The notes under the pieces were generated by a model, which was not told where the DNA came from, searched no databases, and saw only the letters and a list, made by a program, of their open reading frames with translations. From positions 64,001-128,000 of IMG/VR virus record IMGVR_UViG_3300028591_000006: DNA of 64,000 nt; one strand, written 5' to 3'. This document shows positions 1-47,095 of the stretch, piece after piece (within the stretch, counting starts at the first letter, position 1; the number at the start of each line of letters is the position of its first letter). Both the position numbers and the translations under genes were made by a program. The DNA is from a virus (taxonomy: Duplodnaviria > Heunggongvirae > Uroviricota > Caudoviricetes).

Positions 1-930
1 AGTGTAATAAACTTTTCCTCTAGCATCTCTTACCTGGATAGACATTCCTTCAGGGAGTTGTGGTTCAATTGCTGCTAATGCTTTTTGTATACCATCTTTT
101 GTGAACATCTTTGCATAAAGAAGTCTATCAGTCTGACCCCAGTCATCACCGACAGGGAAATAACGTTTATCTTTAGCCTGATTATCTTTGGAATAAAGGA
201 AAAGATTAATTCCATCTGGAACTCTGTTAATCCAATCTGTTGAAGACTTGATTGGTTTGCGAGAAGAATTTACTGGAACTACTTCGCCATCAATATCATC
301 TGCTAAATCGCAAGCATCTTCATAGCTCATAGGAGTTCCGATAACACCACCGTTCTGGTCAAGAACATTGTATTTAATTCCAAGCATTGGTTTTTGGTTT
401 CTACGAATTGCCTTTTTAATACCCTTTGAAATATCTTCTCCAGACATACTTTCCATCTTATTTTTCAAATCACTTACATCATTTTCAAGAGAAGATTTCA
501 CCGGTTTCTTAGCAGACTGAATATAAGAATCAACATCATACATGTTGTTTCCTTTTTCATACTTATCACGAAGCATATCCATTCCGCCACCAGCTTCAAA
601 GAAATTATCGAGGAAATCTCTTACTCTATTCTGTGTACCTTCAAAAGGATATTCAGGACTTTCTTTTGCATAATTCCAAGAATAAGCAATGAGGTCTTCG
701 TATGTAGCACCATTTGTAAAATGTACCTTTACATAACAAAATCCGGTGTCCATGAACTCAAAAAATAAACGAACAGAATAGTCATTATGCTCTGCCATAA
801 CCCAGGAATATCCCTGACCATAACCTTCTTTCATCCACCACCCATTGTATGTTGGACCTACATTTTTATAAACAATATTTGCTGTATCATAAGCAAGTTC
901 TTCAGATTCCATAGAAGATTTCACTAACAT
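1..930 (-). CDS. Partial (runs off window edge) late modular protein of the IKS-motif family; putative internal head/cargo protein
   Basis: Missing from ORF track; hand-translated open frame from ATG at 930 (MLVKSSMESEELAY...) to the edge; linkers YIQSAKKPVKSS and VPVNSSRKPIKSS; late promoter motif at 959-968. Confidence 0.75.
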   Translation of the reverse strand, partial: MLVKSSMESEELAYDTANIVYKNVGPTYNGWWMKEGYGQGYSWVMAEHNDYSVRLFFEFMDTGFCYVKVHFTNGATYEDLIAYSWNYAKESPEYPFEGTQNRVRDFLDNFFEAGGGMDMLRDKYEKGNNMYDVDSYIQSAKKPVKSSLENDVSDLKNKMESMSGEDISKGIKKAIRRNQKPMLGIKYNVLDQNGGVIGTPMSYEDACDLADDIDGEVVPVNSSRKPIKSSTDWINRVPDGINLFLYSKDNQAKDKRYFPVGDDWGQTDRLLYAKMFTKDGIQKALAAIEPQLPEGMSIQVRDARGKVYYT

Positions 931-969
931 ATATTTCCTCTCAATATTCGTGATATTAAAATATATAAA

Positions 970-1461
970 TTATTTCTTTGTCTTGCGGCTTTCCTTTTTC
1001 TTACGATTATATTCATCACGTCTATCTACAGACTTTCTTACAGCCGGACCCTTGGCATTATGGTCAGGAAGTTCGTTTTCCTTAAGCATAAGGATACGGT
1101 TTGCAACGATACGTGGTTCCGGGATAAAGAACATCTTTACATTCTTTCTTTTCGGAGAATGTTCATAATCGTAATGGTCAAATCCGTCTTTATGTGTTTC
1201 ATAGAAATCGGCACGGAAATCTTCGATATGAACGATACCCATATTGCACAGTTCAACAAGCTGCTTGCGATAGATGTTTCCCATAGGTGCTGAGTAATCA
1301 AGATATACTGCGAAATCATCAAGAGTTCCAACATAACTGTTTGACTTGAGTACAGCTTTCTGGAATGTACTGAATCTGCTCCATCTGTCGGCAAACTCAA
1401 ATACATCTACGAATGTACCAATCATCTGAACTTCATCTTTTGTTTTCTTTTCTTCGAACAT
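970..1461 (-). CDS. Hypothetical protein
   Basis: 163-aa ORF with SD (GGAG), in tandem with upstream gene. Confidence 0.7.
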   Translation of the reverse strand: MFEEKKTKDEVQMIGTFVDVFEFADRWSRFSTFQKAVLKSNSYVGTLDDFAVYLDYSAPMGNIYRKQLVELCNMGIVHIEDFRADFYETHKDGFDHYDYEHSPKRKNVKMFFIPEPRIVANRILMLKENELPDHNAKGPAVRKSVDRRDEYNRKKKESRKTKK

Positions 1462-1464
1462 AAT

Positions 1465-2253
1465 TTACTCCTTGTTCAATACTGTTTTTGCTCTACCCTT
1501 TACCATGGTAGACTCTATAAATCTAACCTGACCCTTACAATTTACGTACCAGTCAGAATTAAGATGACGGAAATATCCGCTGCGGAAATGTGGTCGTACA
1601 AAACCATGTTCCACAGTTCTGTGGGAAACAACCTTGTCAGAAAGAGAAATGCTCTTTGCTTTAGGGTTTCTCTTTACACCATTTGGAACTCCATCTACAA
1701 CACACTCAGGAAAAGCATTGATGTAGAACAGGAAATTAAGTGCAAGATTATATGGAGCTGCTTTCTCATTACATTCTTCCACACAGAAAGTAGTATTCAT
1801 ACCATCATCAAAAACTGTAATGAAATGCTTTCCGTTAGGCATCTTTGTGTAAAGGATTGTGCAGCTATAATTCTGTCCGATAACTCCCCAGAACGTTCCG
1901 TTCTCATGGGTTTCAAGGGTGTCAAGAATATTCTGAACTTCCTTCTGACGAACTTCTGTTGTTCTGAAGAAATCAAACAGGCTGTCATCTTTAAGATAGT
2001 ATCTGTCGATTCCATATTCAAGGTCAGTAAGGACAGCAACAACTTCATAAACATACTGATACTTTGCTGAAGTAGGTGACATAGCACTCAGCCAGATAAG
2101 ACTGAATTCTTCAAGTCCACGTGCCTGGCACATGTAGTTGAGTGTCAGTCCTCTCTTGTCGCTGAGTGAGCGTGAAGGATAGTACTTGCATACCTGTTTG
2201 TAAATGTCGTTGTACTGATTCATCTGAATGTTCAGGATATTCCTATATGACAT
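1465..2253 (-). CDS. Hypothetical protein with C-terminal RPHFRSGYFRH motif
   Basis: Start re-placed at ATG 2253 behind AAGGAG; the track start at 2373 overlaps the upstream gene. Confidence 0.7.
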   Translation of the reverse strand: MSYRNILNIQMNQYNDIYKQVCKYYPSRSLSDKRGLTLNYMCQARGLEEFSLIWLSAMSPTSAKYQYVYEVVAVLTDLEYGIDRYYLKDDSLFDFFRTTEVRQKEVQNILDTLETHENGTFWGVIGQNYSCTILYTKMPNGKHFITVFDDGMNTTFCVEECNEKAAPYNLALNFLFYINAFPECVVDGVPNGVKRNPKAKSISLSDKVVSHRTVEHGFVRPHFRSGYFRHLNSDWYVNCKGQVRFIESTMVKGRAKTVLNKE

Positions 2254-2263
2254 AACTTGCTCC

Positions 2264-2491
2264 TTATTTGTTATAATCTTCTTTAGTATAAAGGAATGTA
2301 AACCAGCCACGATATTTCTTAGATTCTCCGAATTTGACTCCATTTTTAAGGAATCTCCATCCACAATATTCAACTGTAATCTGAGTCTTAGTTACTTTTG
2401 TAACTTTTGTATAATTAATCATTTCCTGACCAGCACCGCCACACTGGCGTACTACAACTTCGTCACCAACTTTAACATTGTTCAAATCCAT
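2264..2491 (-). CDS. Small hypothetical early protein
   Basis: AAGGAGCAAATT-ATG directly downstream of sigma70-type promoter. Confidence 0.7.
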   Translation of the reverse strand: MDLNNVKVGDEVVVRQCGGAGQEMINYTKVTKVTKTQITVEYCGWRFLKNGVKFGESKKYRGWFTFLYTKEDYNK

Positions 2492-2506
2492 AATTTGCTC
2501 CTTAAA

Positions 2507-2555
2507 TAGTTTTACTATCTGTAATAAATATACTACCTTGTATAACGCTTGTCAA
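2507..2555 (-). promoter_or_regulatory. Early sigma70-like promoter, class A (TTGACA-17-TATATT plus conserved leader)
   Basis: Shares 29-bp TAGTATATTTATTACAGATAGTAAAACTA with copies at 23352 and 61538. Confidence 0.8.
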
Positions 2556-2633
2556 GAAAAAAAATAAAAAAAACACCAAAATTCATAAGAATTTCAGTGT
2601 TTTTAACAGTTTTTTCAGAATGTACAGCGGAAA

Positions 2634-3095
2634 TTATTTTTCCTTAGCACTCTTCTTCATCAGTTTTTCCATGTTCTTCTGCATTTCTTTAAAGCCTTTC
2701 TGCATGGTTTCAAGCTGCTTACTCTGAGCGTCAATCAGTTTAGCCTGTGTTTCCACAAGTTTCTGAAGGGCAGGGTCACTTCCTGAAGATTTTGATTCAT
2801 TAGCGTGAAGAGTATTTTCATTGAATCGTTTAAGATTATTCTGTTTCTTCTCGTTGATGATTTTCCAGTCTTCATCTGTAAGCTGCTTGATAAACTTTCC
2901 ATCTTTACCAACAATCTGTGCCTCACAGACTACTGGTTTGCGAAGTGAAAGAAGTTCATAAGCATCTTCAATAGATACTTCTGTTCCCTGATTTTTTGTA
3001 CCAGGTTCTACAAGCCAGATACGGATTGTATTTCCATGGCTTGTTACTGAACAGAACTTGCCGCTGATTGGCTGTACACGAATTGTTCTTCCCAT
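2634..3095 (-). CDS. Hypothetical protein with C-terminal coiled coil
   Basis: 153-aa ORF with SD. Confidence 0.7.
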   Translation of the reverse strand: MGRTIRVQPISGKFCSVTSHGNTIRIWLVEPGTKNQGTEVSIEDAYELLSLRKPVVCEAQIVGKDGKFIKQLTDEDWKIINEKKQNNLKRFNENTLHANESKSSGSDPALQKLVETQAKLIDAQSKQLETMQKGFKEMQKNMEKLMKKSAKEK

Positions 3096-3291
3096 AGGAT
3101 TCTCCTTTATATTTAGTTAAAATATAATAACTATTCTACAAAAATGATAGAAATTTTTTCTTCAGAAACATTGAACTCTATTTTGAAATCAGATATCTCT
3201 TTGTGGGTTTTATCATCTTTAAGGACCACAGAAACATGATGTGCTCCAAAACCCTGATGTGCCTTATCCTGAAAGATACCAACGAATTTAC

Positions 3292-3570
3292 TTAACTCCA
3301 TTCTGTTCTCCGTTCAGATGGAATAACTTCTTCAAATACCTTATGCAACTCAGCAATAAGTTTATCACCAAAATGAGCAATTGATTTACAAAGGTATAAT
3401 GAAAATTGACTGATTTCAGGCTGCTCTTCACTTTCTGCTTTCATCGTAAAGGCAAGTACATACTCAAACAGGAATTTTTCATCCGGACTGTCCGTAAACT
3501 TTTCGTAAAATGAAAGAAGGAAGTTTCTGAAAGATTCTGTACAATAATCAAAAGTTTCTTTTTTTGTCAT
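3292..3570 (-). CDS. Hypothetical protein
   Basis: 92-aa ORF with AAGGAG SD. Confidence 0.6.
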   Translation of the reverse strand: MTKKETFDYCTESFRNFLLSFYEKFTDSPDEKFLFEYVLAFTMKAESEEQPEISQFSLYLCKSIAHFGDKLIAELHKVFEEVIPSERRTEWS

Positions 3571-3598
3571 AAATACTCCTTATCTTTAATTATAGAAA

Positions 3599-4504
3599 TT
3601 ATTTGTCTTTCATACCCTTGGAAATACTCTGTTTTGCTTTCGGACAGCGACCGGGAACAAATCCTTCCGGACATTCGAACTGCATTACTTCTATGATTCC
3701 ATTGTTATAGTAATGACGACCTTTATTGGCTTTGCTGATGTTAGCTTTACATTTATCAGATTTGGCTATTCCACGATGTCCATCAGCAACTTTCTTAGTA
3801 TGAGCCTTTCTTTGTTCTTCGGAAAGATTATTCCACCAGTCTTTACGGCTTTGACTTCTTTTTTCAGAACCAGCAGCTGTATTGGTTCTTCCTGGTCGGA
3901 AACCATCCGGACATGATTCTGCAACAGTATCTATAATACCATTAGTATACCATTTCTTACCTTTGATTTGTTTAAGAGATTTATTACGTTCTGAATTGAT
4001 TCTTCGTTGTTCCTGACCTTCGGCAGACATCCAGTAAGCACTAATAGAATTTTTATGTTTTTGTTTGGATTCTTCGGAAAATACCTGTTTCTGACGGGCT
4101 GCTGATATTTTCTTTCTTATTTCTGCACCTCTTTCACTTGCGTGTAATTTTCGTATAGATTTTGAAATCTTTTCATTTACAGTTTCTCCAAGATTTCCAC
4201 CATTACCACCATCCGAGATATTATAATTGGCAAGACCTATAGAACGATAATATTCAATATATCTCTTCTCAAGAATATCAGCATCTTGTTTTGTAATACA
4301 TTTCTCAAGAACTTTTTTCTCGAAATTTTCTATGCCATATTTAGGTATTGCATACTCTAATAAAATTTTACCAGAGCCTAAATACCCATCTGTTTCAGGT
4401 GTTTCTCCTTTATAAAGAGTTCTTTGACCAATATAATTGTGTCCATTGATTTTGTTAGTCGTTACGTAAATGTAATGATACAATATTACCCTTTTCATAA
4501 GCAT
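3599..4504 (-). CDS. Free-standing GIY-YIG homing endonuclease with NUMOD3-like repeats
   Basis: YIYVTTNKINGHNYIGQ...YLGSG...E..YI...YNIS.GG.GG catalytic pattern; HS/FSEE..K repeats; WYTNG..CP.GF repeats. Confidence 0.9.
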   Translation of the reverse strand: MLMKRVILYHYIYVTTNKINGHNYIGQRTLYKGETPETDGYLGSGKILLEYAIPKYGIENFEKKVLEKCITKQDADILEKRYIEYYRSIGLANYNISDGGNGGNLGETVNEKISKSIRKLHASERGAEIRKKISAARQKQVFSEESKQKHKNSISAYWMSAEGQEQRRINSERNKSLKQIKGKKWYTNGIIDTVAESCPDGFRPGRTNTAAGSEKRSQSRKDWWNNLSEEQRKAHTKKVADGHRGIAKSDKCKANISKANKGRHYYNNGIIEVMQFECPEGFVPGRCPKAKQSISKGMKDK

Positions 4505-4633
4505 TCTCCTTTTTGGAATGATTATGAGAACCTTTTTATATAATTAAGGTAAACATAAGCAATTCCACATCAATTGTTTGTGTTATTTAGGCTATGGATA
4601 TTCGGTGTATCCATAGTCGTTTAAGATGATTTC

Positions 4634-4662
4634 AATATAATATGAAACATAATTATTGTCAA
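4634..4662 (-). promoter_or_regulatory. Sigma70-like promoter upstream of GIY-YIG gene
   Basis: TTGACA-17 nt-TATATT on minus strand. Confidence 0.65.
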
Positions 4663-4668
4663 TAAAAA

Positions 4669-4694
4669 AAAGACCACCCTTTCGGATGGTCTTT
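4669..4694 (-). terminator. Intrinsic terminator after major capsid gene
   Basis: AAAGACCA/TGGTCTTT stem; U-run on minus strand. Confidence 0.75.
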
Positions 4695-4716
4695 GTTGTT
4701 TTATGTGGCTTTAAGG

Positions 4717-6177
4717 TTACTCGATAACGAACTTAAGCATTGAATTTTCGAATGCACGGGTACCACCAAGCATACAACCCATACCCTGAATAGAGTGCAG
4801 GTCATCCATAGCAAGAGGGTTTGTAGCGTAGAGAGAAATGAATGAACCTGTAAGATAAGATGCATCCATATCATCACGCTTGTATCCCATAAGTGCGGTA
4901 TCTTCATCGAAGTCCTGGTTCTTAAGAACCTTGAAACGATTGAAGAGTGTACCGGCAACATAAGGTCCGATTGGTTCAGCAGAGTAAGAGTTAGCTGACC
5001 AGATATCCTTGCTGTTGTAGAAGTTAGCAGAAAGAGATTCGATAATGTTCATCAACTTAGAACCTGCAACAATCCAGTTAGCACCAGAACGTGCAATGTT
5101 CTTACGAATTTCGTTGCTTGCTTCAATGATTGACTGAAGAACAGACATGTTATGTTCAATCTGTGAAACTCCAGATGGAAGGATTGAATTCCATGTTGCT
5201 GTACCTTCTGCACGAGCGAGCATTTCGTCAAACATATTACAGCTGATTTCCTTGTTAATCAGACCACCAAGGCTTGTAGAAAGAACCTGGTCGATATCAT
5301 ATCCGTTGAGAACCTGCTTTGCAGCATAGAAGTCATCAAGAGAATATGTTGAGCGGAGTCTGTAAGGATTTGCTGTGATTGTCTTAGACTTCCATTCAAG
5401 AATAATCTGAGCAGGTTTCTTACCACCAACATAGTTATCAGGTGTTGCACCCCAGTCATAGCGGTATTTGATAGAAACTTCAGCACCACTTGCAGCGGCA
5501 TTGAGTGTAATTGCAACATCACCACTCTCGTAGTCTACTGTACCTGAATCAATTACATTAAGAACAGGAGTAATCTGTCCTTTTCCGTCATCAAGTGTGA
5601 ATGCGTTAGCAACACCAGAAACTGTGATTTCAAGTGTGTTAGGGAGCATTGTTCCTTCAGGAGCAGTAAATGTTACATCTGTTCCAGATACAGTTGCATC
5701 AGCACCTACCTTGTTTGTTGTGTAAGTGTTATCCTTAGCCCAGTTTGTTGCACCAAGAAGAGCTGTACCCTTTGTGATACCGTTGCGGTTTTCGTTAGCG
5801 GTAATCTGTGGATAGAAGATTGGTGATTCTTTTGTTGGCATTGGCTGAACGCCGCAAACTTCTGTGTAAGCGAAGTTTGGAATCAAAATAGAATAGAGGT
5901 TGTAAAGGATAGAAATTGGATTGTCTACCTTTGAAATGTCTGATACGGCAGACTTAATTTCTTCTTTTGATTTCTTGCCGGTAGTCAGCATTACGTTTGT
6001 AACCTGCTGAAGAGAGTTCTTAAGAACTGCCTCTTTTTCCTTAGACATCTTTGTTCCCCAGCGTTTTGCATATGCGTCTCTTGACTGTGCAATGAGATTG
6101 TTATGCAAAGGGTCAACTGAAGAATTAATCTGTGTAATGGTTGAGTTGAGTTTAGCCTGTGCTTCTTCTCTTGTCAT
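4717..6177 (-). CDS. gp23: Major capsid protein, T4 gp23-like, with inserted beta-rich domain
   Basis: VCGVQPM..P..IFY motif, EINKEI, ANWIV.., motif order of gp23 family; 486 aa; near prohead protease. Confidence 0.9.
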   Translation of the reverse strand: MTREEAQAKLNSTITQINSSVDPLHNNLIAQSRDAYAKRWGTKMSKEKEAVLKNSLQQVTNVMLTTGKKSKEEIKSAVSDISKVDNPISILYNLYSILIPNFAYTEVCGVQPMPTKESPIFYPQITANENRNGITKGTALLGATNWAKDNTYTTNKVGADATVSGTDVTFTAPEGTMLPNTLEITVSGVANAFTLDDGKGQITPVLNVIDSGTVDYESGDVAITLNAAASGAEVSIKYRYDWGATPDNYVGGKKPAQIILEWKSKTITANPYRLRSTYSLDDFYAAKQVLNGYDIDQVLSTSLGGLINKEISCNMFDEMLARAEGTATWNSILPSGVSQIEHNMSVLQSIIEASNEIRKNIARSGANWIVAGSKLMNIIESLSANFYNSKDIWSANSYSAEPIGPYVAGTLFNRFKVLKNQDFDEDTALMGYKRDDMDASYLTGSFISLYATNPLAMDDLHSIQGMGCMLGGTRAFENSMLKFVIE

Positions 6178-6228
6178 AGTAATTATTCTCCTTTATGAAT
6201 AACTATTTAATTTTTCCAACACTCTAAC

Positions 6229-6252
6229 AGAGTGGCTTATTTCAGCCACTCT
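6229..6252 (-). promoter_or_regulatory. Hairpin in 5' leader of capsid mRNA
   Basis: AGAGTGGCT-6 nt-AGCCACTCT between late promoter motif (6287-6296) and capsid ATG. Confidence 0.5.
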
Positions 6253-6314
6253 TGCTCTAAAACGAACGTTGGTGGCATTGTATACTAAATATATAAATGT
6301 TGCTGCTCGGAAAG

Positions 6315-7607
6315 TTAATCGTTCAGATAATTGCAAAGTTCCTGACCAGGATTCCAGATGACTTCAAACTGCAAAGTTCCAAGACTTTCATTATAATATG
6401 GGTCATCTCTCTGGTCTTCAGGAGCAAAACTTGTATCACCAGTTGAAAATTCTACAAAATATTCACCTTCATATGTATCATCCATAGTTACATAATAACT
6501 ACCATTTGTTGTTTCAGCATAACTTCTACAATTATCTTTAAATTCATACAAAGGAATTGTATCATTTACCTTACCAACTTCAGGAACATCACTTCTTGTA
6601 ATTCTTACAAAACAATCAGAAGTTGCATTATGGATTTCTGAAATCTGAGCTGCGGATTTCACAGCCTTTTTCTTTCCTTTCTTAGACCTTCCATGACATC
6701 CGGATTCGATAGGATTTGAAAGACCAATATATTCACGAATTGTATCCGGTTCAAACCAGATTAAATCATTCAGTTCGGTCATTGTCGGTGGATTTCCTTC
6801 TTCACGGAAAAGCAGCTCTTCACAGGCATTAAGAATATCATCAGGGTCAGCACCATCTTCAATCATACTGTCGAACTGGTCCTTACCGCCTGACCAGAGT
6901 CTTGTATAAAGGTCATTGCCGCTGATATCTTCTGTAACGTACATTGACTGGATTGGGCGACGAGAATTTGTAAGATAATCCTTTGCAATCTGTGCTTTAC
7001 TATCTGCTGTGAATCCATGCTGACGAAGGAACTCACGTACATGACGAATTGTTGTCTGAGAATAATCCCAATCAGGATAAAGAACAGGTTTACCATCAAC
7101 AATCTCTGCAACTAACGTACCGTAAGAATACAACTTATCATCATCGAACTCAGCTTTATTGTAGAAACTTGCTCTTGAATCATGCTGTGGTTGCAAATAT
7201 CCACGAGCCATAGATTGTACAGGTTTCTTTTTACCTTTCTTCTTTCCGCAAGCTGACGCAACAAGTTTTCCACTATTCAGTTTACGTGCAATCTGAGCAG
7301 CCTGAGTATTGAACCATTCAGCATCAGATTCTCCCGGATTGGAAACTTCAGTATCCCATACACTTCCACTTTTTGCTTCATAAGGCATTACAAAATCCCA
7401 TTCATAATCGCTCATTGCTGAATTACTAGCAAGAACGGCAATCTTCGCACAAACTGTAGGTTCATCAAATCCTTCACCCATGCCAAATGCAAGACAAAGT
7501 TCATCACCATTATTCAGATTATCAAGTGTGATATAATAAGTAGATTCAGGACTTGCAGATACGCTTTCTACACCTTTCTGAATATCCTGTGGAGTTATTT
7601 TCTTCAT
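6315..7607 (-). CDS. Acidic multi-module late protein, IKS-motif family (putative head cargo)
   Basis: Basic linkers KKKGKKKPVQS, RRPIQS, PIES..KKGKKKAVKSA separate about 4 modules; late promoter 7637-7646. Confidence 0.75.
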   Translation of the reverse strand: MKKITPQDIQKGVESVSASPESTYYITLDNLNNGDELCLAFGMGEGFDEPTVCAKIAVLASNSAMSDYEWDFVMPYEAKSGSVWDTEVSNPGESDAEWFNTQAAQIARKLNSGKLVASACGKKKGKKKPVQSMARGYLQPQHDSRASFYNKAEFDDDKLYSYGTLVAEIVDGKPVLYPDWDYSQTTIRHVREFLRQHGFTADSKAQIAKDYLTNSRRPIQSMYVTEDISGNDLYTRLWSGGKDQFDSMIEDGADPDDILNACEELLFREEGNPPTMTELNDLIWFEPDTIREYIGLSNPIESGCHGRSKKGKKKAVKSAAQISEIHNATSDCFVRITRSDVPEVGKVNDTIPLYEFKDNCRSYAETTNGSYYVTMDDTYEGEYFVEFSTGDTSFAPEDQRDDPYYNESLGTLQFEVIWNPGQELCNYLND

Positions 7608-7650
7608 ATATTTCCTCGCTTAAAATGTTTATATGGAAATATATAATAAA

Positions 7651-7680
7651 AGACCCCTACGAACTTAATCATAGGGGTCT
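7651..7680. terminator. Stem-loop terminator
   Basis: AGACCCCTA...TAGGGGTCT inverted repeat in intergenic gap. Confidence 0.6.
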
Positions 7681-7706
7681 AAGGAAGGTATTAATATGGC
7701 TTATTA

Positions 7707-8063
7707 TTAATTATTCAATAATTCAAAACATTTAGAGAAGTTTTCATCGGTTATGAACTTCCCTTCACCTTTCTTACGTTCAAAACCAACCTTTTCAATT
7801 TTTATAGTCGAATCGATTTCTTCTTCAGTAAACACAGGCTCATGTTCAGGAAGATTTATTAATATATCGCTGCCATAAACAATATACAAATTACCTTCAT
7901 ACACAAACAATTCATTTTCAGAATCATATACAAATCTATTAACATGATGTGGATTTTTAGGAATATATCTGATATTCCTGTTTTTCCAGATAGTTTTATA
8001 GATTCTAAAAGCCAATTCGTCTTTCTTCAAAAAAGTAATTTTAATCATAATTTTGCTCCTCAT
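7707..8063 (-). CDS. Hypothetical protein
   Basis: 118-aa ORF, gene-dense minus-strand context. Confidence 0.6.
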   Translation of the reverse strand: MRSKIMIKITFLKKDELAFRIYKTIWKNRNIRYIPKNPHHVNRFVYDSENELFVYEGNLYIVYGSDILINLPEHEPVFTEEEIDSTIKIEKVGFERKKGEGKFITDENFSKCFELLNN

Positions 8064-8072
8064 AAGTATTAT

Positions 8073-8765
8073 TTATCCTTTTCTTCTTGTAGCATTATCA
8101 TCTACAAAATCTTTACCAAAAGCATAAGAATGTGAATTCCTACGTCTAGGTTTAGTATAAAAATAACCGTTTACATTGCCATTATCATCTCTTGAAACGC
8201 TTTTAGCTTTATCTTCAAACATACCAACAGTATCAGGTGTAGCATTAGGATTACTAGGATAATCAAACTCAGCTTCACCATTGAATCTGTGTCTGTTATT
8301 TCCATTTCTCATAGAATCATCTTTCAATGCCGGAGAATAAATAATACATTCCTGTTTGAACGGAATTGCAAAACTAGCGTCAAATTCTCTCATAAAATCG
8401 TTCATAACCTGACGGAAATCTTTATCATCAGTCATATTGATAACCATGTAAGAATGTTCATTATCTTCTTTCGATTTATCTTGAGGACCTTGATAGCCAC
8501 CATACACAGATGTAACTTTCCAACCATAATAATCGCATAATTCTCTAAGACCATCTCTCAAAGCAATTTCCATCTCCTGATTAGTATATTCCCCATCATA
8601 ATCAGGTTCTTTTCTCTGGCTTTTATCTGCTGTCAATACAACAGTTTCATGGTCATACATATATGATTTCATACGATTATAGCTTGCACTATAAATTTTA
8701 TCTTTACCGAGAATTATATCAAGACTCTGTTTATTAAGTTCATGTCCGTTCATGTGTTTTACCAC
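8073..8765 (-). CDS. Hypothetical phage protein
   Basis: 230-aa ORF (probable start M5 behind GGTGG). Confidence 0.7.
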   Translation of the reverse strand: MVKHMNGHELNKQSLDIILGKDKIYSASYNRMKSYMYDHETVVLTADKSQRKEPDYDGEYTNQEMEIALRDGLRELCDYYGWKVTSVYGGYQGPQDKSKEDNEHSYMVINMTDDKDFRQVMNDFMREFDASFAIPFKQECIIYSPALKDDSMRNGNNRHRFNGEAEFDYPSNPNATPDTVGMFEDKAKSVSRDDNGNVNGYFYTKPRRRNSHSYAFGKDFVDDNATRRKG

Positions 8766-8811
8766 CTATTATAATTATAGAAAACCCACCATTTTCAGGT
8801 GGGATGCATCT

Positions 8812-11661
8812 TTACTTATTCCAGCGTTTGAATGCTTCAGGAGTACAAGGATTACCCCAGGTACTTCGTGTCTTTTCAGAAATCACACCGTCTCTTTCAA
8901 GTCCGTCCTTATACGATTCCCAATCCTGTTGCATTTCATAATAATCATTCCACTGTCCGGCAGCCTTAAAATCCTGTACAGCCTGTCGGAAAGTAAGACC
9001 AGATGTTACAGATTCACGGGAATTGTCAATCTTATGATACATTGTTTCGCCATTAGAGAAACGTGCTGTTACACCAAGTTTCTGCCATCCGTAATCTTTT
9101 ACAAGAGTATCGAGATAAGTATTAATTTTTGCTGCAAGATTATCAAATTCGGCATCTGACAAATCTTCGGTATTTCCACCTTCTTTTATCTCAATCCAGA
9201 TACCTTCATAGTATCCGTCACGGATTTTAATACAGAAAGGTGGGGCATAATCTGGGTCACGATAATCATCATAAAGCGGAATATCCATTTCAGTTGCAAG
9301 GTCTGTGGCATTATCAATTTCATCTCTATATTCAAGAGAATCAAGGTCATAATCACGTTCCTCTGTGTCTACATCATTTTCTTCATCATATACATAGTTC
9401 TCAGCAACATATGTTACAAGTGGGAAATCATATCCATAAACATTATCATTGCTGCCGAAGTTTGATGTTCCTGACTTAATAAGACGTTTAGATTGTATTT
9501 TCATTTTCTTTTCTCCTTTCTTACCTGACTGAATATTTTCCGTTCCATTCCATAAGTAATCCGGGTCAATTACTACATCAAATCTGTTTCCAAACTCAGG
9601 ATTTATACCCCAGATAAAACTTTCTGAATTTAATGACATATCATCAATCCAATAAGAATTAAATCCGCTCGGCTCTTCTTCTTCCGCATACAGATTAAAT
9701 GCAAAACCACTTGGAATGGCAAAAGGTGCTTCATTAGATGGAATTTCTTCAGCAACTGATTCCGCAATAGATTTAAGACCTTCTGGATAAATTGTCAGGG
9801 TGTGACCAAAATCGTGTTGAAAGAAATCATCCTGACACATCTCTATGAATTCTTCATCTGTATCACGATGATATACCTCATAAGCGTCTGGCCAATTATC
9901 ACCTTCTTCTCTTTCGAGATATTTTAACCACTGGTCAAATCCAGCACGAGTATAAAGAGTTCCATCATCGGCAAGAAGTAGGGGTTCGGTAAAACTTATT
10001 CCGATGTCACCAATCTTTTCTTCTACTTCATCCATATCATATTCCTGGTATTCCCAGCTGCCATTTGCAGATTTAATTACTTTCATATTCTTATCTCCTT
10101 TTGATGATGTCAGGCAGATTTTTTCAAATCCACTCATGGCATCCCAGTCTTCAAGCAAATCATTATCATCAAGAATGTTATAGACTTTATTCAGTAATGG
10201 AATGTCATCTTTAAGAATTCTCTTATTGATAGTTCTGTAATCCTGTTTATCATCAATAACATAGAAAAGCAAATCATCAAGCTGCTTTAATTCTTCATCG
10301 CTCAAAGAATTTCTTACAACATCATATTTGGTAAAGTCTTCCTCTTCACCATACGCTTTAGTAATATAACCGAGAACGATTGATATACCATCTCTTTCAC
10401 CTTCGCTGAGAGATGCAGACGATTGTATTTTCATATTATTTCTCCTTGAAGAACCGATGTTTTTCTTAGAAGATGTAACCTCATTAAAGGCTTTAAGTGG
10501 CGGAGCTTTTACACCTTCCGGTAAACCATTTGGATATAAATGCTTATTAGCATAAACATCATATTCATGATTCTTCATCTGTTCGATAGCATATTCGAGT
10601 TTTGTAGAGAGTGATTTGATATCTCTTTCCCTGAAAGAATCATCTTTTTTCCATTTCTCAGCAGCAAAAGTATATTGTTTTTCAGCAACAGTTTGTTTGT
10701 TATGAAATACTGTGAACCATGACGAATTAAAAGAACTACCGTGTAAGGTTGTGTATAAACTCCACCCATTCTTAAAATAAGCTGTCACTGAAATTTCAGG
10801 TATACCACCATTAATGCGTCTGCTTAAATGTATATCTGCTCCGTAAGGTTTTAACAAATCCTCAATAACTTGTAACATCTCTCTTTCAGCTTTATCATAC
10901 ACATCAACTGTTTCTAAACTAGAATAATCTATTGCCGATTTAATAATATTATTCATAATCTCAAATCCTTCTTTGTACTGTTTCTGATATTCAGTCCAGG
11001 CATCACCAAGACCATCTATAGCCTCAGCCATATTACCAACTTCGCCAAGGTTCCATTCCTCATCATAACAGAATTTCTTGGCTGAGTTATAATCTCTCTC
11101 GGTCATATCACCAAACCGTTCTGTAAGCTGTTCAAGGTAATAGTCTTTATAGTCTTCACGTGTTTTCATATTTCCACCTTTCAATGCACTTTCAATAACA
11201 TCCCAGTCTTCTTCCGGATAATTTGCAACTCCATAAAGCTGCCCTTCAACTCCCAAATCCTGGAGAAGAATTCCATCAGTAATCTTGTAAGCCGATACAT
11301 CTTCAATATCTACACCATAGGTATCAGCCACATCTTCCGGATTATCACAAGCCCAGATTGCGTAATTGAAATTGTCTTTTGAGATTCCATATTCGGTAAG
11401 TTTGTTTATGATATTGTCTACGAGAGCATAGATGGCATCTTCATCTGCTGCAATGCTCTCAGGGTCTACATTGTCTGTAACTGAGTCAAAGTCAACTTCC
11501 GGGTAAAGACGCTGAAGGTCGTTTATCACTCCGTCATAGTTTCTGACCTGACCATCCTGAAACATTTCCCATGCAAGTACATTGCGTACAGAAGTGAATG
11601 AATCAAGATTAGATATGATATCGCTGCGATAGACTGTCTTATTTATACCTGTTGTTTCCAT
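8812..11661 (-). CDS. 949-aa acidic polyprotein with five internal in-frame RBS+ATG; IKS-motif family
   Basis: Internal KGGNMKT, KEGFEIMNNIIKSA, RRNNMKIQSSA, KGDKNMKVIKSA, KKGEKKMKIQSK; late promoter 11666-11675. Confidence 0.8.
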   Translation of the reverse strand: METTGINKTVYRSDIISNLDSFTSVRNVLAWEMFQDGQVRNYDGVINDLQRLYPEVDFDSVTDNVDPESIAADEDAIYALVDNIINKLTEYGISKDNFNYAIWACDNPEDVADTYGVDIEDVSAYKITDGILLQDLGVEGQLYGVANYPEEDWDVIESALKGGNMKTREDYKDYYLEQLTERFGDMTERDYNSAKKFCYDEEWNLGEVGNMAEAIDGLGDAWTEYQKQYKEGFEIMNNIIKSAIDYSSLETVDVYDKAEREMLQVIEDLLKPYGADIHLSRRINGGIPEISVTAYFKNGWSLYTTLHGSSFNSSWFTVFHNKQTVAEKQYTFAAEKWKKDDSFRERDIKSLSTKLEYAIEQMKNHEYDVYANKHLYPNGLPEGVKAPPLKAFNEVTSSKKNIGSSRRNNMKIQSSASLSEGERDGISIVLGYITKAYGEEEDFTKYDVVRNSLSDEELKQLDDLLFYVIDDKQDYRTINKRILKDDIPLLNKVYNILDDNDLLEDWDAMSGFEKICLTSSKGDKNMKVIKSANGSWEYQEYDMDEVEEKIGDIGISFTEPLLLADDGTLYTRAGFDQWLKYLEREEGDNWPDAYEVYHRDTDEEFIEMCQDDFFQHDFGHTLTIYPEGLKSIAESVAEEIPSNEAPFAIPSGFAFNLYAEEEEPSGFNSYWIDDMSLNSESFIWGINPEFGNRFDVVIDPDYLWNGTENIQSGKKGEKKMKIQSKRLIKSGTSNFGSNDNVYGYDFPLVTYVAENYVYDEENDVDTEERDYDLDSLEYRDEIDNATDLATEMDIPLYDDYRDPDYAPPFCIKIRDGYYEGIWIEIKEGGNTEDLSDAEFDNLAAKINTYLDTLVKDYGWQKLGVTARFSNGETMYHKIDNSRESVTSGLTFRQAVQDFKAAGQWNDYYEMQQDWESYKDGLERDGVISEKTRSTWGNPCTPEAFKRWNK

Positions 11662-11772
11662 AAGAAAATATATAAATCAGAACAGCATACTTCCAAGGTA
11701 TTTATAATTGCATATAAGGACTTCATCAGTCTTATTATTGTCTACTCCATGACTTGAGTATTTCATATAAAT

Positions 11773-12219
11773 TCATTTTGTTTCCTTTAAGAAATCTAAA
11801 GAATCATCAACCATCTTTTGTCTTTCTTCTACAGACATGTCATTCCATCGGGGTTTTCCTTGGATTCCTAATTGAAGGAATATTGCCATAAGAACTTGCT
11901 TTGATATGCTGTTTCCTGATTGTTTATAGAGTTGACTCTTACTGTTCACCTTTGCAGCTTTGTTGAAATCCTCATCCGAGAATCCCATAAGTCTCCATGT
12001 CTCATTCTCAGTTAACTTACGGATAGCATATTTCTTACCCATTTCTTTATCTCCTTCTACGACCGGAAGTATAGCAGTCTTCTTACCTTCCGGGCGTGTT
12101 GTTATAGTCGGACATAATCCGCTCTTATCTACAGTTTTATTAAACGCATTTATCGTATCACCCGGTTTACACTCATTACTGAGTAATGTATCCCAGGCTT
12201 GTTCATAAAATTCATACAT
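11773..12219 (-). CDS. C5-cytosine methyltransferase C-terminal fragment (last TRD-like module plus motifs IX-X)
   Basis: LCPTITTRP module then IRKLT..E.WRLMGF..(IX) and LYKQSGNSI(X); internal AAGGAG-ATG at 12042. Confidence 0.9.
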   Translation of the reverse strand: MYEFYEQAWDTLLSNECKPGDTINAFNKTVDKSGLCPTITTRPEGKKTAILPVVEGDKEMGKKYAIRKLTENETWRLMGFSDEDFNKAAKVNSKSQLYKQSGNSISKQVLMAIFLQLGIQGKPRWNDMSVEERQKMVDDSLDFLKETK

Positions 12220-12427
12220 CTTCTTTAATGATAGAATCTTCCATTTCTTCAAGAATCATTATATCAAGAAACGACATTGTTGTAAGGGTTGGACAGATTT
12301 CAGGTGCTCTTGCTCCCCACGAACGAATATCAGAATATCTTGCCTTTACGGAATGCTTCTCATATCCTTTTCGTATCTGCTTACCGAATTCATTTCTTTC
12401 CTGTCGTAACAGATATATCTTCTTCAT
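12212..12427 (-). CDS. Free-standing TRD-like mini-ORF of split methyltransferase
   Basis: ICPTLTT motif; stop overlaps next start (ATGTATGA). Confidence 0.7.
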   Translation of the reverse strand: MKKIYLLRQERNEFGKQIRKGYEKHSVKARYSDIRSWGARAPEICPTLTTMSFLDIMILEEMEDSIIKEDV

Positions 12428-12982: not shown

Positions 12983-12998
12983 CAATTTCCACCAGATA

Positions 12999-14799: not shown

Positions 14800-14883
14800 T
14801 TCATATCTCCATATATTTTCAGTATATCTTAATAATAGAAAAACCCGCCTTCTCAGACGGGTTTGTTACAGAATGAAAAATAT

Positions 14884-41166: not shown

Positions 41167-43203
41167 ATGAGTTTTGTTAAATTCAGAGATGCTATCATCA
41201 CACATTTTGATGATATGCAGAAAAAGTACGACAATTTGTTTGTCGTAGATTTGGACAAAGATAAGTTCTACGAATTTTACCTTTCAGTTTATCCGGAAGG
41301 AACAAATCCAATGTTCCGTGAACGCACTGAACATGACTGTTCTACATGTCGCCACTTTATCAAATCAATCGGTAATGTTGTTGGTATTAAGGAGGGTAAG
41401 ATTGAAACAATCTGGGATGTTACTGTTGATGACAAGACTTATCAGATTGTTGCAAATGCAATGGCTGATTATGTAAAGACAAAAGCCATTCAGGATTTCT
41501 ACTTCTCAAAAGAATCTTCAGCAGGTTGTCTTGAAAATTATGAACAGAGTGAAGACGGTTCTGTAAGGACTTGGCAACACTTCTATTTGAAGGTTCCACA
41601 GAAGTATGTAACATTTGGTGTAGATGAAAAGAAAGCACAAATGCGTGATATTCGTAACGTATTCTTCCGTTCACTTTCGGAATTCTCAATCAGCAGCATT
41701 GATACAGTTCTTGAACTTATCGCTCAGAATTCATTGTATCGTGGAAATGAATGGGAAGCTAACTTGAAGAAGTTGCGTGGATATAAAATTGCTTTTGACA
41801 AGCTTGATGAAAAGGAAAAGGAACTGTTCGCTTGGGAAAAGGCAGGTGAAGCCGGTATTGCTGTAGGTAAGATTCGCAATCATTCAATTGGAACACTTCT
41901 TATTGATATCAATGAAGGAATGGATTTGGACCAGGCAGTTACCCGCTACGAGAAAGTTGTAGCACCAACAAACTACAAAAGACCAAAAGCAATTTTTACA
42001 CAGAAGATGGTTGAAGAAGCACAGAACAAGATTACTGAACTCGGTTATTCAGATTCTCTTGCACGACGATTTGCAACAATTGATGATATTACAGTAAACA
42101 ATATCCTCTTCTCAAATCGTGACGTAGCAAAAGAAAAGAACCTTGATGTATTCGGTGAACTTAAATCTGAAGCAACTTCAAATCCAAACAAATTCAACAA
42201 GGTTGAAGAAATCAGTCCTGAGAAGTTTGTACAGAATGTTCTTCCTACCGCTCGTGAACTTGAAGTTTATTTCGATGGTAAGAACGAAAAGAATCTTTGT
42301 TCACTTATCGCACCAAAGAATAAAGGTGCAAAGACAATGTTTAAGTGGAACAACGGTTTTTCATGGGCTTACAAAGGAAACATTACTGATTCACTTATTA
42401 AAGAGAACGTAAAGAATGCCGGTGGAAACGTTACAGGTGATTTGCGATTCTCAATTCAGTGGAATGATAACGGTGACAACAATAATGACTTTGACGCACA
42501 TTGTACAGAATGTTTTGCGGGTGGCAGACACAATGAAATCTATTATTGCGACAAACGAAGCGTATACACTCGTGGTCAGCTTGATGTAGACATTATTCAG
42601 CCAAACGGTAAGGTTGCGGTAGAGAATATTTATTGGACTTCACGAAATACAATGTCTGACGGAAAGTACATTTTCTATGTACACAATTTCAATCATCGTG
42701 GTGGACGTTCTGGATTCTCAGCAGAAATTGAGTTTGACGGAACAATCTATAAGTTCTGTTATGACAAGGAACTTCGCCAGAATGAAAAGGTAATGGTTGC
42801 GGAAGTAACTTTGAAAGACGGACAGTTTACAATCAAAGAACTTCTTCCTTCAACTACAGCATCAAAAGATATTTGGGGAATCAAGACAAACAGTTTCGTT
42901 CCTGTATCAGTAGTTATGTACTCACCAAACTATTGGGATGAACAGGATGGAATCGGTAATAAGCATTACATGTTTATGCTGAAAGGTTGTGTCAATGATG
43001 AAACACCTAACGGATTCTTCAATGAATATCTTAAACCTGAGCTTGAAGTTCACAGAAGAGTTTTTGAGGCTCTTGGTTCTAAGATGAAATGTGAAGATTC
43101 AGAAAATCAGTTGTCTGGACTTGGATTCTCCGCTACAAAGCGTGATGAATTGGTTGTAAAAGTAATCGGTTCAACAGAACGTTTGTTGAAAATTAAATTC
43201 TAA
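41167..43203 (+). CDS. Large conserved phage protein with TerD-like C-terminal region
   Basis: GDLRFSIQWN...DFDAHC...LDVD..P..VENI..Y.F.VHNF pattern. Confidence 0.6.
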   Translation: MSFVKFRDAIITHFDDMQKKYDNLFVVDLDKDKFYEFYLSVYPEGTNPMFRERTEHDCSTCRHFIKSIGNVVGIKEGKIETIWDVTVDDKTYQIVANAMADYVKTKAIQDFYFSKESSAGCLENYEQSEDGSVRTWQHFYLKVPQKYVTFGVDEKKAQMRDIRNVFFRSLSEFSISSIDTVLELIAQNSLYRGNEWEANLKKLRGYKIAFDKLDEKEKELFAWEKAGEAGIAVGKIRNHSIGTLLIDINEGMDLDQAVTRYEKVVAPTNYKRPKAIFTQKMVEEAQNKITELGYSDSLARRFATIDDITVNNILFSNRDVAKEKNLDVFGELKSEATSNPNKFNKVEEISPEKFVQNVLPTARELEVYFDGKNEKNLCSLIAPKNKGAKTMFKWNNGFSWAYKGNITDSLIKENVKNAGGNVTGDLRFSIQWNDNGDNNNDFDAHCTECFAGGRHNEIYYCDKRSVYTRGQLDVDIIQPNGKVAVENIYWTSRNTMSDGKYIFYVHNFNHRGGRSGFSAEIEFDGTIYKFCYDKELRQNEKVMVAEVTLKDGQFTIKELLPSTTASKDIWGIKTNSFVPVSVVMYSPNYWDEQDGIGNKHYMFMLKGCVNDETPNGFFNEYLKPELEVHRRVFEALGSKMKCEDSENQLSGLGFSATKRDELVVKVIGSTERLLKIKF

Positions 43204-43708: not shown

Positions 43709-44674
43709 TTATTCACCTACAAATGCACCTTCTTCAAAATCTTTTTCTTCAAAACCGTAATCTTCAAAATCAGCATCTACATCCAGGATATAATTATGAG
43801 CCGTATCAAAGAAAACTCTATCGTTATCAATTACAATGAATACCTCTCCATCTCCGGATTCCTGAATGACATCTCTCATTGAAACACCATCGTCACTATC
43901 AATCTCCCACCACATGCCTTTTATATCTTCAAACTCATAGTCTTCCGGGAGATGTACATTATATTCATCAAAATCTTCTTCAGAATTAATTTGTACGAAA
44001 GAAGTACCAGATGGACTGTTCTCTTCATCATCTTCATCAAGGTCACCTTCAAGGACATTATCGTCTTCAGGTTTTTCAATACCAACGAGAATATTATCAT
44101 CGGTTTCTTCTACGGTAAGGTCTACAGCCGATTCAATACTCTCCGGTGCCTCATCAACGCTTACTGTATACAGACCGATTTTAACCTTTACATCATCGTC
44201 ATCTTCGATAAGTTTATTAATCTCGGTTACGTCTTTATGAGTAATAATATCATCACATTCAATGACATTATCTTCCCCGGCTTCCGTACCAAAGTAATCT
44301 TCAAGTTCTCCGACAACAGAATCAACAGATGATTTTACAATCCCATTCTGTTTCCATTTCTCAACTATTTTCTTTGCCTCACGTTTTCCTTTACCGTTTT
44401 GTGTAAGTCTATTCATGGCTTCTTCTTCCTTGATTTTACCCAGAGCGAACTGGTCTTTAATATCACCGATAGCTGATGATTCTATAGTTTCTTTGGTATA
44501 TTCAGTAAATGCCTTATCGAAATCATCTTCGCTCATTTCAGCGAAGTCATCATAAACATGAAAATAATCTTCGAGTGCAGCTCTCAGGTCTGCCTTATTT
44601 TCAAATGTAGCTTTAAGTTCATCTACATCAGCTGCCTGTTCTTCCGTAATATTGAATATGTCTTTAGTATTCAT
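43709..44674 (-). CDS. Very acidic late protein, IKS-motif family (scaffold/core-like)
   Basis: TIESSA, IVKSSV, SIESAV motifs; late promoter variant 44695-44704. Confidence 0.65.
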   Translation of the reverse strand: MNTKDIFNITEEQAADVDELKATFENKADLRAALEDYFHVYDDFAEMSEDDFDKAFTEYTKETIESSAIGDIKDQFALGKIKEEEAMNRLTQNGKGKREAKKIVEKWKQNGIVKSSVDSVVGELEDYFGTEAGEDNVIECDDIITHKDVTEINKLIEDDDDVKVKIGLYTVSVDEAPESIESAVDLTVEETDDNILVGIEKPEDDNVLEGDLDEDDEENSPSGTSFVQINSEEDFDEYNVHLPEDYEFEDIKGMWWEIDSDDGVSMRDVIQESGDGEVFIVIDNDRVFFDTAHNYILDVDADFEDYGFEEKDFEEGAFVGE

Positions 44675-45120: not shown

Positions 45121-45306
45121 GGAGCAGATTATGAGATACTATATCGTGAAAATCAGTACAGACGGACAGTACGAAAGATTTCCTACAGTTTATTTTACAA
45201 GAAACGCTGCTCAGAAAATCTGCGACTGGAATAATTCGATGTATTCTGGATACTGGAAGGTATGTGAAGAATAGGGTAAATCTATCATTAAGATAAGGAG
45301 AAAATT

Positions 45307-45660
45307 ATGAAAAATATTATGGTGTGCGGTTCTCGTTCTATCACAAACGAAGAAGTTATCTTTTCAAAATTGAATGATGTTCTAACTCAACATCCTGACA
45401 TGATTCTTATTTCCGGTGGTGCAAAAGGAGTAGATTCTATCGCTGAAAACTGGGCAAAATCACATCATGTTTTTATAAAACAGTTCAAGCCAGACTGGAA
45501 GAAATATGGTCGTGGAGCAGGCATTGTCCGTAATAAACAGATGGTTGAAGAATCCGACAAAGTAATAATCTTTTGGGATGGCATTTCTAAAGGTACAAAA
45601 TCAGACATTGATTTCTGCAAAAAATTCGGAAAAGAACATCTGATTGTGAGACTCATTTAA
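45307..45660 (+). CDS. SLOG-family protein (DUF2493/YspA-like)
   Basis: VCGSR, ISGGAKGVD, DW..YG..AG..RN..MV, FWDG.SKGT. Confidence 0.9.
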   Translation: MKNIMVCGSRSITNEEVIFSKLNDVLTQHPDMILISGGAKGVDSIAENWAKSHHVFIKQFKPDWKKYGRGAGIVRNKQMVEESDKVIIFWDGISKGTKSDIDFCKKFGKEHLIVRLI

Positions 45661-46079
45661 TTATGAGATTCTAAGAATTTACGACTCATTGAAAACACCA
45701 AAGGCTGAATATCAGGAATCAGACGTTTAACCGTATCGAAAGTTAATCCTGTAGATATTGTATTGTCTACAAGGAATTTTGGTTTCTCTGATAGTTTTAT
45801 ATCTGAAACGCTCATTCCTAAATCAATTGCCGCAATATCATCTTTATTCATTCCTTTCTTGATGTTCCTAAGTTCCTGGTCACTAGGGGTTTTAGAGAGG
45901 ATGTCACATACATCTATTTCAAGGTCGCTCCGCAATTCTTTTATTCTATTGCATATATTCAATGTATAAATCGCTTTCCCACCATGCTGAGGTGTTGGAA
46001 TAAGTATGCAACTTTCTTTTAATTGCGGTGCTAAGAATTCTGCAATTTCATTAACATAACGAGAGTTGTTTGTTTTCAC
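45657..46079 (-). CDS. Phosphoribosyltransferase (ComF-like)
   Basis: LIPTP, LVDNTISTGLT PRPP-binding loop variant. Confidence 0.75.
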   Translation of the reverse strand: MKTNNSRYVNEIAEFLAPQLKESCILIPTPQHGGKAIYTLNICNRIKELRSDLEIDVCDILSKTPSDQELRNIKKGMNKDDIAAIDLGMSVSDIKLSEKPKFLVDNTISTGLTFDTVKRLIPDIQPLVFSMSRKFLESHN

Positions 46080-46105
46080 ACCTTTTATGACAGAAGATAC
46101 ATATC

Positions 46106-47095
46106 CTATTGTCTGAGCATAAAATGAAATCCATTGTATTCAATCATAGGTGAGTTATCTTTACGATAATATGCACTCGCTACAGCCACTCCACCATCAC
46201 CAACACTCATTGGTGATATAAGTGTTCCATCTTCATATCCAGTCACGTTGCAGCCATTATATTTTGACTTCTTCTTTTTCTTCTTAAGACCGGCTGTAAC
46301 TTTATATTTGAATCCATCACCGGCATCCTCCCACCCATCATCAACAGAAATATCAGTAACATTACTTTCTTCATTCTGCTGAGTATTTACTTCTTCTGTT
46401 TCTGTATATTCAGTTTCTTTTGTTTCTTCAGGTTTTTCCTGGATACCGGCAAGTTTATTATAAGCTGCAAGGGCATCTTCACCCTTATCAAAGAAATCTG
46501 CTTTCAAAGTACGATATTCATTTCCATTACGGTAAAGTTTCCAAACAGAGAATTTCTTATCAGCCGGATTTCCTGCAAGAACGGCATAGTAACCACCGGT
46601 AAGTCCACCAATACGCTGAACCTTTCCGACTTTTGCACGACTGAATCCTTTCTGTTTGCGAATCCAGTTCTGAGCATCTTCTGGGGAAATAATGTCTGCG
46701 ACCCATTTACCGGCTTCCTTTACCTTATTTCCAACTTTCTGAGCAGCTTTACCAGTTGCCCTTGCCTTATCTACAATTCCATATTTAATTTTGCCAAGCG
46801 GATTAAATGAAAGGATTAAAGAGGAATTTATGACTGTAGAAAACAACTTCTTCAGAACGTCATTACTTATTACATCACCTTCAGAATATTCAGGAATAAG
46901 GTTCAGATTGTCGTCTATCTCGATTATTTCATAACTTCCATTTCCCATTCCGATAGCATAAAGCTCAGTATATATTCCTTTGTCGGTTAAGATAACATCA
47001 ATATCATTTCCTTTAACTTCGATTCCATTAAGTGATTCATCTTCTGTTTTCAGAAAGGCTGCGATTGCTGATGGTATTGTTCCAGTAATAGTCAT
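46106..47095 (-). CDS. Late protein, unknown function (possible head cargo)
   Basis: TVINSS motif, acidic/basic tail; late promoter 47112-47121. Confidence 0.6.
   Translation of the reverse strand: MTITGTIPSAIAAFLKTEDESLNGIEVKGNDIDVILTDKGIYTELYAIGMGNGSYEIIEIDDNLNLIPEYSEGDVISNDVLKKLFSTVINSSLILSFNPLGKIKYGIVDKARATGKAAQKVGNKVKEAGKWVADIISPEDAQNWIRKQKGFSRAKVGKVQRIGGLTGGYYAVLAGNPADKKFSVWKLYRNGNEYRTLKADFFDKGEDALAAYNKLAGIQEKPEETKETEYTETEEVNTQQNEESNVTDISVDDGWEDAGDGFKYKVTAGLKKKKKKSKYNGCNVTGYEDGTLISPMSVGDGGVAVASAYYRKDNSPMIEYNGFHFMLRQ

Follow-up and report, generated by a model that had tools for sequence, protein, structure and literature searches.

A putative serine-directed prohead-protease code in the head proteins of an uncultured rumen/gut phage with T4-type head genes

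We analysed 64,000 nucleotides of viral DNA (hereafter the window), bases 64,001-128,000 of the single 142,789-bp contig IMGVR_UViG_3300028591_000006, which derives from an uncultured rumen/gut phage with T4-type head genes. Our comparisons indicate that a short motif recurring in its head proteins is probably the recognition site of the phage's own gp21-family (S77) prohead protease, which would cut after serine in [I/V/L]-x-S/[S/A/G/M], where the slash marks the proposed cut. One tripeptide rule with a free middle position is found at the capsid boundary, at both protease ends, at protein N-termini and in disordered linkers, and for this reason it looks like a prohead-protease site. T4-type head maturation with leader-tagged, protease-processed head proteins is already known; serine at P1, the residue preceding the cut, would be the new part. 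A serine-P1 maturation code had been proposed in an earlier reading of the same DNA (the original prediction), and comparison with relatives, in which the capsid I-x-S-A, the protease ends, the linkers and the leaders recur, now strongly supports it. Positions below are those of the window unless given as genome positions, and (-) denotes the minus strand.

Conserved sites in the major capsid protein

The major capsid protein gene (486 residues; 4717-6177 (-)) belongs to the T4 gp23 family, as had been presumed, with a match of 76.5 bits to Pfam Gp23 (PF07068) over residues 96-441 and a match to PHROG 138, the major head protein. Cultured homologues align from about residue 105 onward only, and the stretch that precedes the conserved core is a predicted N-terminal propeptide; together with the family match, this makes the protein a gp23-type capsid.

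The proposed boundary between propeptide and mature protein is I74-K75-S76/A77 (5947-5958 (-)), within the EEIKS/AV segment (residues 72-78) already singled out by the original prediction. None of 116 capsid homologues (46-100% identity) departs from I74, S76 or A77. Position 75 is occupied by any of ten residues (K, M, A, T, Q, L, S, N, R and V), and the segment immediately before I74 is variable. No conserved glutamate lies near the site: between residues 20 and 100, no alignment column exceeds 65% Glu. A second site inside the propeptide, I17-N-S19/S20 (6118-6129 (-)), has I or V in 112 and S in 86 of the 116 homologues.

When aligned to T4 gp23, residue 98 corresponds to T4 residue 102, and the site falls in the same region as T4 E65/A66. 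I-K-S76/A lies 23 residues ahead of the conserved IPNF; in Listeria phage LIS04, which has the closest cultured capsid (27% identity), the L-L-E59/T site, itself only predicted, lies 22 residues ahead of the conserved VPNL. We infer that a 76-residue propeptide would be removed at I-K-S76/A77, with a second cut at I-N-S19/S.

Sites at both ends of the prohead protease

The prohead protease gene (290 residues; 16402-17274 (-)) encodes a member of the Peptidase S77/T4 gp21 family, again in line with the earlier assignment: it matches Pfam Peptidase_S77 (PF03420) with 36.4 bits against a cutoff of 27, and PHROG 207 with an E-value of 1e-18. The direct match to T4 gp21 (5JBL) is weak (E 0.04); it pairs S155, part of SSRG, with the Ser of ASRG. 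In an alignment of 100 protease homologues, conservation of H101 and of S155 is 97% or higher, and the catalytic Ser and His are retained.

Near the N-terminus, the site L25-I-K-S28/G (17188-17202 (-)) is kept almost throughout the alignment (I 98%, K 96%, S 92% with N in 8%, G/S 100%). Two sites lie in the C-terminal tail. P-L-A-S257/S (16501-16515 (-)) is part of an F-P-L-A-S-S block present in about three quarters of the homologues. I271-K-S273/S (16450-16464 (-)) is the AIKS/SL that the original prediction had correctly located in the protease tail (residues 270-275 of 290); it has I, V or L in 90%, a variable P2, S in 68% plus N in 10%, and S or A as the next residue in 72%, and its flanks differ between protease subgroups. 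Proteases of the gp21 family normally process themselves at both ends or at the C-terminus (PMC5694885), and conserved sites at both termini fit the expectation for such an auto-processed zymogen. The protease would thus trim itself inside the prohead at L-I-K-S/G, P-L-A-S/S and I-K-S/S.

Immediately after the protease lies a gene for an acidic protein of 303 residues (15421-16332 (-)). An AAGGAG ribosome-binding site (RBS) 7 nt before the ATG at 16332 identifies MLIKS-ELSP as the true N-terminus, so that this gene of the original list has the putative leader MLIKS/ELSP. Its homologue in L002 begins MKILS/ELSP, and the genes that follow the protease in L005 and L014 begin MIKS/S and MKRLIKS/S. 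Between the protease stop codon and the RBS of this gene, positions 16360-16400 (-) contain a perfect 9-bp inverted repeat, CTATCTGTA..TACAGATAG, which could form a hairpin modulating read-through or translation of the downstream acidic gene.

Definition and enrichment of the motif

Enrichment was assessed by within-protein shuffling of all 225 open reading frames (ORFs) of the 142,789-bp genome. The motif as first written, [IV][KQE]S, is enriched over background (108 observed versus 71.3 in shuffles, z 4.6); its middle position was drawn too narrowly, since relatives vary freely there. Judging from these sequences, the true signal is [ILV]-x-S followed by S, A, G or M, with any residue in the middle. 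The broader [ILV].S[SAG] occurs 179 times versus 102 in shuffles (z 8.6), [KR][KR].[IVL].S 29 times versus 9.1, and the strict form [KR][KR].[IVL][KQ]S 11 times versus 1.2 (z 9.1). No such excess is seen when the S that closes this basic context is exchanged for E, T, A, G, N or D; [KR][KR].[IVL].E, at 18 versus 13.2, is not enriched.

Ten of the 11 strict copies fall in five ORFs of the head-gene block, and the site excess is carried by six ORFs with 5-15 sites each, against 1.1-2.3 expected. Three of these are in the window: ORFs of 949 residues (8812-11661 (-); 11 sites versus 2.2 expected), 432 residues (-368 to 930 (-); 7 versus 1.1) and 430 residues (6315-7607 (-); 5 versus 1.2). The other three lie outside it, with 1102 residues (genome 51300-54608; 15 versus 2.3), 603 residues (genome 60231-62042; 14 versus 1.8) and 435 residues (genome 58877-60184; 7 versus 1.8). 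The gene list of the original prediction was incomplete: it lacks the three ORFs richest in sites, immediately upstream of the window.

Multi-module proteins joined by motif-bearing linkers

These six ORFs have a bead-on-a-string layout. Cutting them in silico at [ILV]-x-S/[SAG] yields folded-size, mostly acidic pieces with net charges down to -55 (for example -51, -46, -55, -26 and -25), versus +2 to +8 for the spacers between them. The spacers are basic, 6-18 residues long and very often have two flanking sites, as in VNS/SRKPIKS/S, IES/SRKITS/G and LTS/SKGDKNMKVIKS/A; the linkers contain no Glu. Such double cuts at disordered linkers would release folded, mostly acidic modules together with small basic peptides.

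The 430-residue ORF, a four-domain polyprotein directly upstream of the capsid gene, illustrates this layout best. Its linkers (7209-7280, 6942-6971 and 6651-6710) include the predicted KKPVQS and KKAVKSA. An AlphaFold model built with 34 aligned homologues has four folded domains, and its only long stretches with a predicted local distance difference test (pLDDT) score below 50, residues 119-150, 210-222 and 298-328, coincide with the motif linkers. The module at residues 133-221 is DUF8033 (PHROG 4264), a domain found elsewhere as free-standing viral proteins of 78-117 residues. The 68 homologues of this ORF are mosaics of 3-7 modules joined by [KR][KR][PAS][VI][KQ]S, and modules are gained and lost among them exactly at the linkers. 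Their 262 basic-context linker sites give the consensus [KR][KR][PAS][VI][KQ]S[SMAG], with K or R at P6 and P5, P > A > S at P4, V/I/L at P3, K > Q > others at P2 and S/M/A/G at P1'. The same linkers occur in ORFs adjoining the capsid and protease genes of nine related loci (L001-L008 and L014).

The 432-residue ORF has four modules; its first 310 codons occupy 1-930 (-) and it continues 368 nt past the window start. It begins with the leader MLVKS/S and contains the double-site linkers IQS/AKKPVKS/S (490-522) and VNS/SRKPIKS/S (241-273), so that KKPVKSS and RKPIKSS are both present in the ORF where they had been reported. Two of its linkers, SSRKPIKSS at 241-273 and at genome 63959-63979, are near-identical in DNA (TCT TCT CGC AAA CCA ATC AAR TCN TCN), and they could represent an in-frame recombination joint for module duplication or exchange. 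In other linkers the codons vary from copy to copy, which indicates that selection acts on the peptide.

The three linkers of the 949-residue ORF (10417-10479, 10066-10113 and 9469-9534) each contain an in-frame RBS and ATG followed by MK(V)I[KQ]S. Its last module is a separate gene in relative L002, starting MKIQSKRVIKS/G. For these two reasons the ORF looks like fused genes whose leaders have turned into internal sites.

In the 603-residue protein, the leader MAKRLIKS/ is followed by a 171-residue domain of net charge -51, and the C-terminal end is an array of RKP[VI]xS units with variable P2; six RKPVxS copies with variable P2 occur in one array. Peptide seeds found no relatives of this protein in viral contigs, and the family was later recovered with HMMER. 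Homologues down to 29% identity have 8-18 sites versus 2-4 expected, most of those listed retain a leader of the type M-A/K-K/R-x-[ILV]-K-S, and one (P0302) has five tandem R-P-L-N-S/G-I units.

Two further ORFs on the original list fared less well. The 321-residue acidic protein encoded at 43709-44674 (-), outside the head block, does contain TIESSA and IVKSSV, with sites at IES/S, VKS/S and IES/A; it is a weak candidate at most (3 sites versus 0.5 expected, p about 0.02 uncorrected), and peptide seeds retrieved no relatives of it from viral contigs. The 329-residue ORF at 46106-47095 (-) has to be removed from the family, with no [IV][KQE]S at all and no enrichment of the broad motif (3 versus 0.9).

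Short N-terminal leaders

Nine ORFs begin with M-x(0-6)-[ILV]-[KQ]-S, where 2.8 are expected and 7 of 5000 shuffles, confined to the first 10 residues, reach nine. AT-rich start regions were considered as a cause of N-terminal MK..IKS and rejected, since the same shuffles of the first 10 residues give 2.8 versus 9. These N-termini have the form of a capsid-targeting sequence (CTS), a short leader ending in a putative protease site. One of them, MKVIKS/D, starts a 174-residue acidic protein (14884-15408 (-)) with a TAGGAG RBS before its ATG; this ORF was on the original list. Leaders are kept in homologues of the 603-residue protein and in the post-protease gene of four phages. We propose that such leaders would be cut from several head-block proteins after M-x(0-6)-[ILV]-[KQ]-S.

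Two observations concern N-termini elsewhere. A 156-residue acidic ORF at genome 17694-18164 (-), outside the window and far from the head block, starts MDIKS/DVEV; it may encode a protein that carries a leader while its gene, like those of the T4 internal proteins, lies apart from the head genes. In the related locus L013, the two genes after the protease (L013:3616-4332 and L013:4334-7501) share a different N-terminus, MF[IL]..G..YNA[ST]H, which may be that lineage's own targeting leader.

Genome and gene neighbourhood

A megablast search of positions 1-20000 against 50,697 phage records gave no match, and thus no close relative. With no close cultured phage, and with the LIS04 capsid only 27% identical, no published proteome can be transferred to this phage. 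The portal gene lies at genome 55463-57424, just upstream of the window, and the sheath and baseplate genes lie at 29-39 kb of the window. Three GIY-YIG-type homing endonuclease genes (PHROG 314/7168), at 3599-4504 (-), 17322-18416 (-) and genome 49121-50215, directly adjoin the capsid gene, the protease gene and the head block, respectively; the most conserved head genes are thus flanked by mobile endonucleases. A 678-residue ORF (41167-43203 (+)) matches PHROG 1735 (unknown function) end to end (E 2e-260), far more strongly than any other window gene matches its family, which suggests a highly conserved and possibly mobile gene amid very divergent phage genes.

Comparison with known head proteases

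The arrangement resembles T4 head maturation in many respects. The gp23-family capsid and the S77 protease are homologous, acidic head genes follow the protease gene, and the capsid has a predicted N-terminal propeptide. Short leaders end in a site, as does the CTS of T4 IPI-III and Alt, multiple sites occur in core proteins (gp22, gp67 and gp68 are the processed ones in T4), and the sites share a hydrophobic P3, a free P2 and a fixed P1. On the other hand, P1 is Glu in T4 and would be Ser here, and the substrates here are long multi-domain polyproteins with double-cut basic spacers. The internal proteins of T4 are basic, whereas the putative released domains are mostly acidic, and no Pfam or PHROG match to the internal-protein families was found among them. 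The cleavage rule of T4 gp21 is L/I-x-E, and T4 leaders have 10-20 residues; those described here resemble them in position and length, yet are shorter, at about 4-10 residues (PMC5694885).

Giant phages follow the rules S/A/G-x-E or A-x-E, and their gp175/gp245 protease processes capsid, portal and ejection proteins (PMC5694885, PMC10052503). Phages phiKZ, 201phi2-1 and SPN3US have the same protease family, many processed head proteins, C-terminal autocleavage, several sites within propeptides and a preference for Ser at P1'. They differ in that all cut after Glu and remove long N-terminal propeptides, and bead-on-a-string polyproteins with repeated linkers have not been described for them.

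Herpesvirus assemblin (S21) has a protease fold common to gp21 and follows the rule (V/L/I)-x-A/S. By analogy, the site rule proposed here is probably closer to that of assemblin than to the L/I-x-E of T4: the site logic is near-identical, with an aliphatic P3, a free P2 and small residues at P1 and P1'. The two systems differ in that P1 is Ala in herpesviruses versus Ser here and in that assemblin acts on the protease-scaffold fusion only, and they are evolutionarily very distant.

Discussion

The conservation at the capsid boundary, the sites at both protease ends and the enrichment in linkers and leaders all point to a site read by the prohead protease. We place the cut after Ser because a cut before it (x/S-A) would leave the variable residue at P1, which we judge less likely.

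Several observations weigh against this reading. The gp21-family proteases characterised so far all cut after Glu (PMC5694885 section 14; PMC10052503), so that a Ser P1 would be a new, unprecedented specificity for the family. Our literature search found no report of a non-Glu gp21-family specificity, which is not proof of its absence. The capsid itself has a phiKZ-type S-K-E72 four residues upstream of the proposed site, with Glu in 65% of homologues and Q, D, A or another residue in 35%. The residues D80, I81 and V84 after the site are conserved as well, and part of the conservation could be structural. The linkers favour K or Q at P2 and preserve their basic surroundings, which equally fits a binding peptide or a recombination joint. 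Finally, in L013 (51% capsid identity) the capsid and protease sites are present but basic linkers are few.

The alternative that best survives these data accepts the cleavage and differs as to its products, which would be scaffold or core: the acidic modules would be expelled on DNA entry like the fragments of T4 gp22, the DNA would retain nothing but the small basic peptides, and there would be no anti-defence role. This outcome is quite conceivable, if short of an even chance. Most modules are strongly acidic next to their basic spacers, a charge that suits scaffold driven out by the incoming DNA no less well than cargo. Moreover, the 603-residue protein is conserved across the clade with its leader, acidic domain and basic peptide array, and no module matches an anti-defence or other characterised family: Pfam and PHROGs returned families of unknown function only, and the Atlas returned DUF8033. 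A Foldseek search of the 430-residue model, the one polyprotein folded, gave only noise against the PDB and the AlphaFold database (AFDB) clusters, with a template modelling (TM) score of at most 0.14 by query. However, a scaffold is not usually pieced together from domains that fold on their own and also exist as free-standing small phage genes, as DUF8033 does, and modules that change this quickly between close relatives are met more typically in accessory or conflict genes.

A second alternative is that nothing is cut in the linkers. The basic [KR][KR]P[IV][KQ]S would be a flexible linker or docking peptide that tethers modules or binds DNA or a scaffold surface, or else an in-frame recombination joint, and the capsid I-x-S-A would be structural. 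The linker context (basic residues, Pro at P4, K or Q at P2) is indeed tighter than a minimal protease site requires, modules are swapped exactly at the linkers, two linkers of the 432-residue ORF are near-identical in DNA, and residues following the capsid site are conserved too. We nevertheless regard this explanation as unlikely: it leaves unexplained why the same rule holds at the capsid boundary, at both protease termini and at the N-termini of free-standing genes, the codons of the other linkers differ, and the double sites around spacers and arrays such as the six RKPVxS copies with variable P2 resemble processing sites.

Least probable of all, in our view, is that the Glu rule is kept, with the capsid cut for example after S-K-E72 and [ILV]-x-S either cut by another host or phage enzyme or unrelated to maturation; this agrees with all gp21-family enzymes studied, and S-K-E72 fits the phiKZ-type S/A/G-x-E here and in most homologues, but E72 is often replaced whereas I74, S76 and A77 never vary, the linkers are without Glu, the Glu-ending form of the basic motif is not enriched, and the ORFs scanned in the head block, not all of them, showed no second protease gene.

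If the prohead protease does cut after Ser, the destiny of the released pieces is a separate matter. Phage P1 Dar and T4 IPI* offer a parallel in concept, being head-loaded proteins, some of them trimmed by the head protease, that are injected to protect incoming DNA; no homology to these or to other anti-defence proteins (Ocr, ArdA) was found in Pfam, PHROGs, the Atlas or the Foldseek search of one model. Injection of the modules as cargo, the second half of the original prediction, is about as likely as their expulsion as scaffold, each short of an even chance, and nothing in these data links the modules to anti-defence. More speculatively still, the gp21-family protease of rumen/gut T4-type phages as a clade may have switched from a Glu P1 to a Ser P1, and the code, with its leader of 4-10 residues, may load and then free about 30 small folding modules per genome, DUF8033 included, from shuffled polyproteins; the freed modules would enter the host with the DNA and act there as rapidly evolving effectors against its defences, and the basic spacers would stay behind as DNA-condensing peptides. 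Taken as a whole, we hold this clade-wide scenario to be rather doubtful.

Should the serine code be borne out, the enzyme described here would be a first for the gp21 family, whose known head proteases all cut after glutamate, and its specificity would resemble that of the distantly related herpesvirus assemblins. A simple sequence rule would then read the processed head proteome of an abundant uncultured clade directly from metagenomic contigs. Likewise, orphan domains such as DUF8033 would gain a first functional context, as capsid-delivered modules.

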